Positions 5,494 to 7,261 of a stretch of DNA of 64,000 nucleotides are shown one piece after another. The stretch is from assembly GCF_003334335.1 (NCBI RefSeq), contig NZ_QOWQ01000002.1; one strand, given 5' to 3'. Position 1 is the stretch's first letter. Each line of letters opens with the position of its first letter. The DNA is from Escherichia coli (GTDB lineage Bacteria; Pseudomonadota; Gammaproteobacteria; Enterobacterales; Enterobacteriaceae). The notes beneath the pieces are model-generated. The model saw only the letters and a list, made by a program, of their open reading frames with translations, ran no database searches and was not told the DNA's origin. A program made the position numbers and the translations under genes.

Positions 5494-6153
5494 ATGGACC
5501 TGATTTATTTCCTCATCGATTTTATCCTGCACATTGACGTGCATCTGGCAGAGCTGGTCGCGGAGTACGGCGTCTGGGTTTATGCCATTTTGTTCTTAAT
5601 TTTGTTCTGTGAAACCGGTCTGGTGGTAACGCCGTTTTTACCGGGTGATTCATTGCTGTTTGTTGCCGGAGCGTTGGCATCACTGGAAACCAACGATCTC
5701 AACGTCCATATGATGGTGGTGCTGATGCTGATCGCCGCGATTGTGGGTGACGCGGTCAATTACACTATCGGGCGGTTGTTCGGTGAAAAGTTGTTCAGTA
5801 ATCCCAATTCGAAAATTTTCCGTCGCAGTTATCTCGACAAAACCCATCAGTTTTATGAGAAACATGGCGGCAAAACGATTATTCTCGCCCGTTTTGTGCC
5901 GATCGTCAGAACGTTCGCCCCGTTTGTTGCGGGAATGGGCCACATGTCGTACCGTCATTTCGCCGCTTATAACGTGATCGGCGCACTGTTGTGGGTACTG
6001 CTTTTTACCTACGCAGGCTATTTCTTCGGTACAATCCCGATGGTTCAGGATAACCTTAAGCTGCTGATCGTCGGGATTATTGTGGTTTCTATTTTGCCGG
6101 GCGTCATCGAAATAATCCGTCACAAACGCGCTGCGGCACGCGCCGCAAAATAA
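5494..6153 (+). CDS. dedA: DedA-family inner-membrane protein
   Basis: 219-aa hydrophobic ORF downstream of truA. Confidence 0.9.
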
Positions 6154-6308
6154 AAAGTAACTCCGCGGTTCGACCACTTTTTTATCCAAAGTTTCGGGCT
6201 GTTATGTTTTAATGTGCAACATTCATGGTCTGTTGGGGGCAAAAATGGCATTATGCGTCCCCAAAGATAAAACTGGCATCGAACCAGGTTCAGACAGAAA
6301 GGTCCCTA

Positions 6309-7223
6309 ATGAGCTGGATTGAACGAATTAAAAGCAACATTACTCCCACCCGCAAGGCGAGCATTCCTGAAGGGGTGTGGACTAAGTGTGATAGCTGCGG
6401 TCAGGTTTTATACCGCGCTGAGCTGGAACGTAATCTTGAGGTCTGTCCGAAGTGTGACCATCACATGCGTATGACAGCGCGTAATCGCCTGCATAGCCTG
6501 TTAGATGAAGGAAGCCTTGTGGAGCTGGGTAGCGAGCTTGAGCCGAAAGATGTGCTGAAGTTTCGTGACTCCAAGAAGTATAAAGACCGTCTGGCATCTG
6601 CGCAGAAAGAAACCGGCGAAAAAGATGCGCTGGTGGTGATGAAAGGCACTCTGTATGGAATGCCGGTTGTCGCTGCGGCATTCGAGTTCGCCTTTATGGG
6701 CGGTTCAATGGGGTCTGTTGTGGGTGCACGTTTCGTGCGTGCCGTTGAGCAGGCGCTGGAAGATAACTGCCCGCTGATCTGCTTCTCCGCCTCTGGTGGC
6801 GCACGTATGCAGGAAGCACTGATGTCGCTGATGCAGATGGCGAAAACCTCTGCGGCACTGGCAAAAATGCAGGAGCGCGGCTTGCCGTACATCTCCGTGC
6901 TGACCGACCCGACGATGGGCGGTGTTTCTGCAAGTTTCGCCATGCTGGGCGATCTCAACATCGCTGAACCGAAAGCGTTAATCGGCTTTGCCGGTCCGCG
7001 TGTTATCGAACAGACCGTTCGCGAAAAACTGCCGCCTGGATTCCAGCGCAGTGAATTCCTGATCGAGAAAGGCGCGATCGACATGATCGTCCGTCGTCCG
7101 GAAATGCGCCTGAAACTGGCGAGCATTCTGGCGAAGTTGATGAATCTGCCAGCGCCGAATCCTGAAGCGCCGCGTGAAGGCGTAGTGGTACCCCCGGTAC
7201 CGGATCAGGAACCTGAGGCCTGA
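6309..7223 (+). CDS. accD: Acetyl-CoA carboxylase carboxyltransferase beta subunit
   Basis: 304 aa from the ATG at 6309 (AAAGG Shine-Dalgarno 7 nt upstream); N-terminal C4 zinc ribbon (CDSCG...CPKCDHH). The track ORF starting at 6225 is an unsupported upstream extension. Confidence 0.95.
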
Positions 7224-7231
7224 TAACTGAT

Positions 7232-7261
7232 AAGGGCAGGGCCACTGGCTCTGCCCTTTTG
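7232..7261 (+). terminator. Intrinsic terminator after accD
   Basis: GC-rich hairpin (aagggcagg...ctgccctt) followed by TTTT, starting 9 nt after the accD stop. Confidence 0.6.

Follow-up and report, generated by a model that had tools for sequence, protein, structure and literature searches.

The promoter-proximal leader of Escherichia coli accD and its probable translation start

Introduction

In classical autogenous operators, such as those of thrS and the ribosomal-protein genes, a protein binds a structured site that overlaps the ribosome binding site (RBS), and the operator mimics the normal RNA ligand of that protein. Another kind of arrangement was described by Weaver et al. (2019) for pssL-pssA, yoaL-yoaE and baxL-baxA, in which a short ORF with its own Shine-Dalgarno (SD) sequence overlaps the 5′ end of the downstream gene in another frame. 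From initiation-complex ribosome profiling, the same study predicted a small ORF (smORF) overlapping the 5′ end of accD in another frame. Its ORF33-lacZ fusion showed no measurable activity, and replacing the ORF33 start with a stop codon left the activity of an accD-lacZ fusion unchanged (Weaver et al. 2019).

The accD gene of E. coli K-12 (b2316, formerly dedB/usg) codes for the carboxyltransferase beta subunit of acetyl-CoA carboxylase; structures of its product are available (PDB 2F9Y chain B and 8UXZ chain D). An in vitro study put forward a ‘dimmer switch’ model of autoregulation by CT (Meades, Benson, Grove & Waldrop 2010; PMC2831308). CT was found to bind accA and accD mRNA, while a variant with its four Cys residues changed to Ala lost nucleic-acid binding. 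CT also inhibited in vitro translation, an inhibition relieved by acetyl-CoA. The RNA to which binding was mapped by EMSA spanned 684 nt from the start codon and contained a 335-nt ‘symmetry box’; binding to shorter 5′ transcripts was poor, and the accA 5′-UTR alone did not bind. The constructs omitted the accD 5′-UTR, and the assay of beta-subunit repression used accD cloned in pET28 instead of the gene in its native context.

Results

accD and its start codon at position 6309

The window analysed (a stretch of 64,000 nt of E. coli chromosomal DNA; positions are counted from its first nucleotide) is identical to K-12 MG1655 between 6151 and 6340. The gene order around accD, truA-dedA-accD-folC-dedD, matches that of MG1655, and the accD gene itself does not differ from that of K-12. 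Its start, its zinc ribbon and the proposal of autoregulation are all already known from the literature. The gene is delimited by the following features:

6309..7223, plus strand: accD coding sequence, acetyl-CoA carboxylase carboxyltransferase beta subunit, 304 aa (RefSeq)
6225..6308, plus strand: 28-codon in-frame extension, read as untranslated leader (no SD, broken frame, non-coding substitutions)
7232-7258, plus strand: accD terminator hairpin, a terminator-like site from a scan
7263 (2432972), plus strand: 3′-end of the accD transcript (SMRT-Cappable-seq)

The longest ORF does run from 6225 to 7223 (332 aa), as an earlier reading made from the sequence only had stated. When compared with K-12 accD, however, this 332-codon frame is merely the longest ORF, being neither the annotated nor the conserved version of the gene. 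The RefSeq coding sequence starts at 6309 in MG1655 and in further strains. A partial match in E. coli M171-1 was explained by a deletion plus a frameshift within the coding sequence and has no bearing on the start. The 304-residue protein scored 504.9 bits against the TIGR00515 equivalog (NCBIfam; cutoff 317.45), with residues 1-281 aligning to profile positions 1-283 of 285, i.e. from the N-terminus. PDB chain 2f9y_B matched residues 1-304 (E = 5.8e-202), the cryo-EM chains (8uxz_D and relatives) matched from residue 2, and the carboxyl transferase (crotonase-fold) domain PF01039 covered residues 54-270 (E = 2e-20). A cryo-EM preprint reports AccD residues 2-23 to be resolved, with Trp-3 sitting in a pocket of biotin carboxylase.

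Two in-frame ATGs only, at 6225 and 6309, precede the conserved protein. All 78 other Enterobacterales species inspected have ATG AGC TGG at the homologous position, followed by ATT in every species except one symbiont. The sequence AAAGG, which the earlier reading had proposed as an RBS serving ATG 6309 alone, is indeed present at 6298-6302, six nt upstream of this ATG, while ATG 6225 has no ribosome-binding signal at 5-10 nt (predicted SD pairing of +0.9 kcal/mol). Nevertheless, the predicted pairing of the 16S rRNA 3′-end for ATG 6309 is weak (-3.4 kcal/mol). Since about 24% of random positions in the window score -4.0 kcal/mol or better, AAAGG is not significant alone and would not stand out from chance; its weight as an SD derives from its conservation across species, not from its pairing energy, AAAG and the T following the GG being invariant among 55 aligned species.

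The interval is thus very probably the promoter-proximal leader of accD plus the 5′ part of its coding sequence, with translation from ATG 6309 and not from ATG 6225. The annotation, the conservation, the pattern of substitutions, the published transcription start sites (TSSs) and the solved structures all point to 6309 as the true start, as the sequence-only reading had it. In the portion of the literature that our search could reach, accD was named in no table of N-terminal proteomics or of start-site ribosome profiling.

Two extended -10 promoters drive accD

The published TSS coordinates were mapped onto the window, which is identical to MG1655 in this region. The elements located upstream of the coding sequence were:

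6165..6190, plus strand: conserved block 5′ of the promoter (intergenic alignment, Enterobacteriaceae and beyond)
6205..6213, plus strand: extended -10 element TGtTTTAAT of the major accD promoter, conserved, with published TSSs 7-8 nt 3′
6221, plus strand: major accD TSS, giving an 88-nt leader (SMRT-Cappable-seq, NC_000913.3 2434014)
6246..6263, plus strand: second promoter, extended -10 element TGgCATTAT (6246-6254) and TSS at 6263, giving a 46-nt leader

The TSS at 6221 was backed by 263 SMRT-Cappable-seq reads in M9 medium and by 209 in a second row of the table, taken as the rich-medium sheet. A class-I TSS from dRNA-seq (U00096.2 2432037) corresponds to position 6220. The TSS at 6263 (2433972) accumulated 124 and 135 SMRT-Cappable-seq reads in two rows. 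Both promoters fit the extended -10 class of sigma-70 promoters (TGn plus a hexamer, with a mapped TSS downstream), and transcription from these two sigma-70 promoters yields the two leaders listed above. A generic -35/-10 scan of the window called neither of them, because their -35 elements are weak. Further TSSs lie within dedA, at 6042 and 6063, and read-through into accD from upstream is also present in the transcript data.

The TGtTTTAAT element, allowing one mismatch at most, was found 44-188 nt upstream of the start codon in 75 of the 78 other Enterobacterales species, a count in which a few of the one-mismatch matches appear spurious. The block ATGGCATTATGCG at the second promoter was conserved in Enterobacteriaceae only. 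Within the conserved block located 5′ of the major promoter, GCGGTTCGACCAC occupies positions 6165-6177 (-56 to -44 relative to the TSS at 6221) and is followed by a T-tract, while TTATCCAAA carries a weak -35 element, TCCAAA (6185-6190). This block (6165..6190) may resemble FadR and DnaA boxes.

A conserved block surrounds the accD start codon

The sole nucleotide-level constraint beyond coding was found in about 65 nt spanning the start codon (-37 to +27), a block which includes a short hairpin, P2:

6272..6335, plus strand: translation-initiation block comprising P2, GUUCARRCAGAAAGGU, ATG 6309 and codons 2-9 (conservation)
6273..6287, plus strand: hairpin P2, CUGG(C)-loop-(G)CCAG (pairing across the alignment)

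Identity at positions -20 to -1 was 0.87 for accD, compared with 0.45 for dedA and 0.59 for folC in the same 33 species. The relative synonymous entropy of codons 2-17 was 0.39, against a gene mean of 0.70 (79 species). In this set of species the synonymous constraint was limited to codons 2-9; the early codons AGC (78/79), ATT (78/78) and GAA (79/79) were frozen. P2 pairs in 87% of the alignment cells over 54 distinct sequences, its fifth pair being C-G in 24 and U-A in 8, a modest covariation. An antisense transcript that would end at the reverse complement of P2 plus a T-run, a candidate from a minus-strand terminator scan, was rejected. The stem of this terminator candidate has just 4-5 bp and its A-run is absent in Yersinia and Serratia; no opposite-strand TSS was present at the accD leader in the SMRT-Cappable-seq tables examined.

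The block most likely reflects the tuning of ribosome access and initiation. A further possibility, which we hold tentatively and consider less probable than its negation, is that it is a previously undescribed post-transcriptional control element, either a structural switch or a site for a trans-acting RNA or protein. This is compatible with translation from ATG 6309 and would be an addition to it. As a switch, P2 (CUGG/CCAG) would compete with a helix in which CCAG-g-UUCA(A) pairs with the start codon and codons 2-6 (UGAGCUGG / UUGAA). The minimum free energy (MFE) fold of the E. coli sequence does pair CCAG/UUCA with UGAGCUGG, RNAalifold independently selects UUCAR:UUGAA, and the start-occluding helix can form in 97% of the alignment cells, with all 15 one-sided changes keeping a wobble pair. 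The compensatory change seen in P2, the almost frozen synonymous sites of codons 2-9, and a conservation far above that of the dedA and folC equivalents in the same species agree with such a role. On the other hand, zero pairs of the sequestering helix were changed on both sides, which means no true covariation, and the predicted energies are small: the consensus structure reaches -3.2 kcal/mol and the E. coli leader fold is no more stable than its shuffled versions (z of about +0.3). Further, Rfam 15 gave no relevant match in this region of the window (E ≤ 1) or at 14 orthologous loci (E ≤ 0.1), no sRNA regulator of enterobacterial accD was found in the literature search, and no ligand or protein partner is known. 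The conservation might equally stem from the optimization of initiation on a weak SD.

The accD segment resembles the classical autogenous operators of thrS and the ribosomal-protein genes in being compact, conserved, placed over the SD and start codon, and potentially able to form alternative hairpins. It differs from them in that its putative sequestering helix lacks covariation, has a low predicted stability and has no identified partner. We know of no RNA ligand of AccD.

The zinc ribbon and the proposed autoregulation

The zinc ribbon of AccD is encoded as follows:

6378..6455, plus strand: coding sequence of the C4 zinc ribbon, residues 24-49 (Pfam Zn_ribbon_ACC PF17848, E = 9.4e-13)

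The ribbon had been placed just downstream of the start, within 6225-6400. It is present, with the codons for Cys27, Cys30, Cys46 and Cys49 at 6387, 6396, 6444 and 6453, but only the first CxxC falls within that interval, the CPKC motif lying outside. The four Cys residues were invariant in 79 species, although their codons swap freely between TGT and TGC. The synonymous entropy of zinc-ribbon codons 24-52 was 0.73-0.87 versus a gene mean of 0.70 (79 species). Since synonymous variation is at least as high as the gene average, no RNA-level constraint is detectable in these codons. The zinc ribbon is a protein-level feature of AccD; according to the cryo-EM preprint, BC and BCCP bury the zinc domain within the active filament, where it is ‘primarily involved in PPIs’.

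The sequence-only reading had taken it as established that CT binds its own mRNA through the AccD zinc ribbon and represses its translation, and had named the start region together with the zinc-finger codons as the probable cis target. ‘Established’ overstates the case. The proposal derives from the ‘dimmer switch’ model and involves the same protein, zinc ribbon and mRNA, but the determinant in that model is a long internal coding segment rather than the start region and zinc-finger codons. Smith and Cronan reportedly raised CT in vivo without a detectable effect on the translation of CT subunit mRNA. The evidence for autoregulation comes from one in vitro study (PMC2831308), and the model is described in a later paper as having been challenged by Smith & Cronan 2014.

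Autoregulation through binding at the start region and zinc-finger codons appears very unlikely to us. The reported mRNA binding, its Cys-dependence, the inhibition and its relief by acetyl-CoA would fit with it, as would the unusual nucleotide conservation of the start region, although nothing links that constraint to CT binding. However, the published determinant is the 684-nt RNA, with short 5′ transcripts binding poorly, and, because repression was assayed from accD in pET28, the native start region is unnecessary for the reported effect. Against it also stand the burial of the zinc domain in filament contacts and the lack of synonymous constraint on the zinc-ribbon codons. Finally, the accA and accB initiation regions shared no motif with the accD leader beyond chance 7-9-mers.

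Leader hairpin P1 and an out-of-frame smORF

Upstream of the initiation block, the leader contains two further features:

6228..6268, plus strand: hairpin P1 (GGUCUGUUGGGGGC / GUCCCCAAAGAU; MFE and centroid folds)
6245..6322, plus strand: out-of-frame 25-codon smORF, its ATG 6245 lying behind GGGGG (SD pairing of -8.4 kcal/mol)

In the predicted fold, P1 pairs the GGGGG run, and its loop contains ATG 6245 and the second -10 element. For 29 distinct leaders of other genera, the P1-equivalent segment had a mean folding z of -2.6. The conserved UCUG closes onto CAGA/CAGC across genera, the inner stems being entirely different. A pairing of the 5′ UCUGUU with the ACAGA beside the SD was considered and dropped, as the proximal CAGA closing P1 fits better. 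Terminator scans of the Yersinia and Pectobacterium leaders gave zero calls.

The GGGGG run (6235-6239), which the sequence-only reading had missed, is the strongest SD-like element of the leader and stands at a suitable spacing from ATG 6245. The smORF stops 11 nt inside accD and is probably the ‘ORF33’ of Weaver et al. As with pssL-pssA, yoaL-yoaE and baxL-baxA, it is a short ORF with its own SD that overlaps the 5′ end of a downstream gene in another frame, in this case an essential lipid-synthesis gene. That a smORF overlapping accD was predicted from initiation-complex ribosome profiling would further suit a leader peptide controlling accD by translational coupling. Unlike those three pairs, however, the accD smORF is characterized by neither reporter expression nor a downstream effect, and conservation is lacking for its peptide, its frame and even its ATG. 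The negative ORF33 reporters bear on this smORF to the extent that the two are the same, as seems probable. Further, the G-run is paired within P1, the extended -10 element of the second promoter better accounts for the conserved ATGGCATTAT, and ATG 6245 is missing from the transcript that starts at 6263. A leader peptide is therefore very improbable, being largely refuted by the published reporter data.

The in-frame extension from ATG 6225

With TSSs at 6221 and 6263, ATG 6225 occupies position +5 in the major mRNA, and the shorter one lacks it; longer transcripts place this ATG internally, such that trace initiation there could occur. A homologous ATG was present as a sequence in 45 of the 78 species and lay in the accD frame in 30 of these 45, more than one third, though related species are not independent and most such frames contain stops. 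The ATG was associated with a frame open to accD in 13 of the 78 species only. The upstream frame was interrupted by stops or indels in most Enterobacterales species, with in-frame stops as near as 6-12 nt upstream of the accD start in seven. Between E. coli and Enterobacter, substitutions in 6225-6308 were distributed 7/6/5 by codon position and 17 of the 28 residues were kept, whereas accD codons 10-37 showed 1/0/11-13 and kept 28 of 28. The 28-aa peptide had no NCBIfam family match. Rather than a start codon, ATG 6225 is very probably part of a conserved leader sequence, AUUYAUGGUCUG, adjoining hairpin P1.

A 332-residue, N-terminally extended AccD isoform made from ATG 6225, whether through near-leaderless initiation on the 6221 mRNA or from longer transcripts starting within dedA, is barely credible. 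In its favour, E. coli, E. albertii, one Citrobacter and several Enterobacter keep an open frame, and the conserved ATG lies just 4 nt from where the major mRNA begins. Against it, this ATG has no SD, is not 5′-terminal and adjoins P1, the frame is broken in most species, several species have ACG, GTG, AGC or a similar codon instead of the ATG, the substitutions are of a non-coding type, the peptide matches no family, and the extension would precede residues 2-23, which dock onto biotin carboxylase according to the preprint.

Discussion

The main outcome of this analysis is corrective: the autoregulation model is disputed and at no point involved the accD start or the zinc-finger codons. Compared with the neighbouring genes, accD shows far stronger conservation of its initiation region and of its leader architecture (the two extended -10 promoters, P1 and P2, and the frozen codons 2-9), which may be worth specialist attention. 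Neither a described RNA family nor a described regulator explains this conservation. If the conserved block were indeed a control element, then together with P1, variable in sequence but conserved in structure, it would provide a concrete cis element for the stoichiometry of AccA, AccB, AccC and AccD, and would address how these four proteins reach a fixed stoichiometry from three loci.

Locus and start codon of accD

The accD start region (6225-6400) lies in the E. coli chromosome, where the gene order in the window is usg-truA-dedA-accD-folC-dedD-cvpA. A 1.2-kb segment around the start was present as a single copy in each of 5,426 of 5,426 complete E. coli genomes. Since positions 6151-6340 are 100% identical to K-12 MG1655, base for base, published MG1655 data are directly applicable (window position = 2440235 minus NC_000913.3 coordinate). 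The annotation of E. coli M171-1 (L083, NZ_CP101666.1) lists accD as a pseudogene with a frameshift, and its alignment to the window shows a gap of ~124 nt; accD being an essential gene, an assembly error is more likely here than a biological cause.

Every feature described in the sequence-only reading was present. The longest ORF does begin at 6225 (6225..7223, 332 aa) and its only in-frame ATGs are those at 6225 and 6309; the AAAGG preceding ATG 6309 occupies 6298-6302, at a spacing of six nt. The preference for 6309 was borne out by annotation, conservation, substitution pattern and initiation signals, independent lines that agree with one another. It equals the existing annotation (RefSeq CDS start, 6309), so there is no real ambiguity, and the finding as first given held nothing new. 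Alignments to the NCBIfam accD equivalog and to the crystal-structure chain 2f9y_B begin at residue 1. The first residue in AccD cryo-EM chains is residue 2, and a cryo-EM preprint resolved this N-terminal segment (residues 2-23) as docked on biotin carboxylase, where Trp-3 occupies a pocket.

ATG AGC TGG was found at the equivalent position in all 78 other Enterobacterales species, followed by ATT in 77 (the exception is one symbiont). The open frame from the homologous upstream ATG was retained in only 13 of the 78, and in seven a stop lies as near as 6-12 nt upstream in the accD frame. In Enterobacter genomes where the 84-nt extension is open, differences from E. coli were distributed 7/6/5 by codon position and changed 11 of 28 residues, versus 1/0/11-13 and no residue changes when accD codons 10-37 were compared in these genomes. 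As judged from these comparisons, the substitution pattern is non-coding in the extension and coding in the adjoining part of accD. Pairing with the 3′-end of the 16S rRNA was predicted at -3.4 kcal/mol for 6309, a weak value given that roughly one random position in four reaches -4.0 or better, versus +0.9 for 6225. The Shine-Dalgarno argument for 6309 thus draws its weight from AAAG-G-T being invariant in the aligned species, not from motif strength.

Transcripts containing or lacking ATG 6225

A TG(T/G)TTTAAT block is nearly universal in the intergenic alignment; read as an extended -10 element, it predicts a start near 6220, and published data agree. The two accD promoters are:

6205-6213, + strand, extended -10 of the major accD promoter (conserved block; TSS 6221)
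6246-6254, + strand, extended -10 (TGgCATTAT) of the second promoter, upstream of TSS 6263

SMRT-Cappable-seq placed one accD TSS at 2434014 (window 6221), supported by 263 reads in M9 and by 209 in another row, taken as the rich-medium sheet; the other, at 2433972 (window 6263), had 124 and 135 reads. The transcripts from the two share an end at 2432972 (window 7263), just past a hairpin at 7232-7258, and dRNA-seq reported a class-I TSS at 6220, one base from 6221. The two extended -10 promoters, 42 nt apart, each have a matching published 5′-triphosphate end; a generic -35/-10 scan called neither. Further published accD TSSs lie within the dedA coding sequence at 6042 and 6063 (267 and 246 nt before the start), the former preceded by TACAAT at 6030-6035. 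Thus accD has at least four start points plus read-through.

In the major mRNA, ATG 6225 stands at +5; the second mRNA lacks it. Efficient Shine-Dalgarno-independent initiation on leaderless mRNAs in E. coli requires a 5′-terminal AUG, and the stem of leader hairpin P1 lies directly 3′ of AUG 6225. Trace initiation there may occur, conceivable rather than documented, because the transcripts starting inside dedA contain 6225 internally and published read-through transcripts also cover it.

The terminator hairpin is only 30 nt ahead of the folC start (7293), and its read-through is sizeable: 38/124 and 60/263 reads (M9) were accD-folC-dedD transcripts. Synonymous variation was low, too, over the first ~20 codons of folC in a small set of 31 species. 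Upstream of the major promoter, GCGGTTCGACCAC (within 6165-6190; -56 to -44 of TSS 6221) is conserved in many genera; we take it to resemble the FadR operator consensus, and FadR has been reported as an activator of accD. In Pantoea, Erwinia, Photorhabdus and others, the adjacent TTATCCAAA reads TTATCCACA, presumably a perfect match to the DnaA-box consensus.

Proposed autoregulation by AccD

The zinc ribbon reported just downstream of the start is real, although its second CxxC (6444-6455) falls outside 6225-6400, since the ribbon extends further:

6378-6455, + strand, zinc ribbon coding sequence (Pfam Zn_ribbon_ACC, residues 24-49, E = 9.4e-13)

In one in vitro study, carboxyltransferase (CT) was reported to bind the coding regions of accA and accD and to inhibit translation of both, and a four-Cys variant to lose binding (Meades et al. 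2010, PMC2831308). In that study the optimal RNA was 684 nt, from the start codon; an internal 335-nt 'symmetry box' was necessary, and binding was poor with shorter 5′ transcripts. The constructs deliberately left out the accD 5′-UTR, and repression of the beta subunit was assayed with accD cloned in pET28. This map contradicts the proposal that the start region and zinc-finger codons form the cis target. A later paper calls the model challenged by Smith & Cronan (2014), and the cryo-EM preprint describes the zinc finger as buried and mainly mediating protein-protein contacts.

Synonymous-site variation across 79 accD genes gave no sign of RNA-level constraint on the zinc-finger coding region: relative synonymous entropy was 0.73-0.87 over codons 24-52, versus a gene mean of 0.70, and all the Cys codons switch freely between TGT and TGC. 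With a 684-nt RNA needed and the ribbon codons unconstrained, the proposed cis target is not supported. Autoregulation has been published as a proposal; calling it established overstated a single in vitro study that has since been challenged. Smith and Cronan reportedly saw translation of the subunit mRNAs unaffected by excess CT in vivo.

Conserved leader and initiation block

ATG 6225 belongs to a conserved sequence of the leader, AUUYAUGGUCUG, which lies at the mRNA 5′-end. ATGG occurs at this site in 45 of 78 species, whatever the frame, and other species have ACG, GTG or AGC for the ATG. The UCUG(U) that follows AUGG closes P1 (6228-6268 in E. coli), whose interior is wholly different among genera. 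Escherichia has GGGGGC/GUCCCC, Enterobacter GGAGGC/GCCUCU and Pantoea CUGCUGAAG/CUUCAGCAG; Yersinia and Serratia carry inserts of ~100 nt. P1 nevertheless forms significantly more stable folds than shuffled sequences (mean z = -2.6, 29 distinct leaders).

In Serratia, Yersinia, Hafnia, Pectobacterium, Edwardsiella and Rahnella (L043-L062) the ~100-nt insert lies inside P1, ~60-130 nt before the accD ATG, and contains a long imperfect hairpin followed by U5-7 (e.g. ...GGCAUUUUUU). By its sequence it looks like an intrinsic terminator or attenuator inside the leader; a simple terminator scan made no call in it, and it matched no Rfam family.

Around the start codon (about -37 to +27; 6272-6335), codons 2-9 are nearly frozen (AGC 78/79, ATT 78/78, GAA 79/79, CGA 53/68, ATT 74/79, AGC 65/71), and relative synonymous entropy over codons 2-17 was 0.39 in the 79 genes. 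The 37 nt upstream are also highly conserved; identity over -20 to -1 was 0.87 for accD, versus 0.45 for dedA and 0.59 for folC in the same 33 species. The default reading is initiation optimised on a weak Shine-Dalgarno sequence.

A regulatory element in this block is plausible from the sequence, though less likely than that reading. Three possible structures favour it, the first being:

6273-6287, + strand, hairpin P2, CUGG(C)/(G)CCAG (pairs in 87% of cells)

The fifth pair of P2 alternates between C-G and U-A. The P2 3′ arm plus UUCA can pair with the start codon and codons 2-3 (UGAGCUGG) in 97% of cells; one-sided changes were all wobble-compatible and two-sided changes occurred in 0 pairs. 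The third, UUCAR:UUGAA (codons 4-5), is the RNAalifold consensus (-3.2 kcal/mol). Against such an element, predicted folding energies are small and the E. coli leader fold is no more stable than shuffles; the block had no Rfam match, accA and accB held no similar motif, and a literature search returned no sRNA regulator of accD. The reverse complement of P2 plus TTTTATCTTT (6273-6287, minus strand) was flagged as terminator-like; its T-run is not conserved in all genera, and the SMRT-Cappable-seq tables examined list no antisense TSS.

The strongest Shine-Dalgarno-like element in the leader, GGGGG at 6235-6239 (-8.4 kcal/mol), was absent from the sequence-only reading. It precedes an out-of-frame smORF that terminates 11 nt inside accD:

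6245-6322, + strand, 25-codon smORF (ATG 6245 after GGGGG; stop TGA 6320-6322)

It probably corresponds to ORF33, a prediction based on initiation-complex ribosome profiling; the ORF33 lacZ fusion showed no activity, and removal of ORF33 left accD-lacZ unchanged (Weaver et al. 2019). A function for it is argued against: the peptide is not conserved, the G-run is paired within P1, and the second promoter is the better explanation for the conserved ATGGCATTAT. That promoter lies inside the P1 loop, so the two transcripts differ by the presence or absence of P1.

Five loci from Enterobacter sp. ENT03, Phytobacter and relatives (L012, L013, L015, L025, L028) have a minimal spacing of 44 nt between the -10 element and the ATG; neither P1 nor the 5′ arm of P2 is present in them. 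All but L015 have CAGAAAGG changed to CATAAAGG, a change that puts a TAA stop in the accD frame, 12 nt upstream. As a natural deletion variant, this group could serve to test the role of the leader; the unexpectedly conserved leader and initiation block are the only part of the finding that may be worth experiments.
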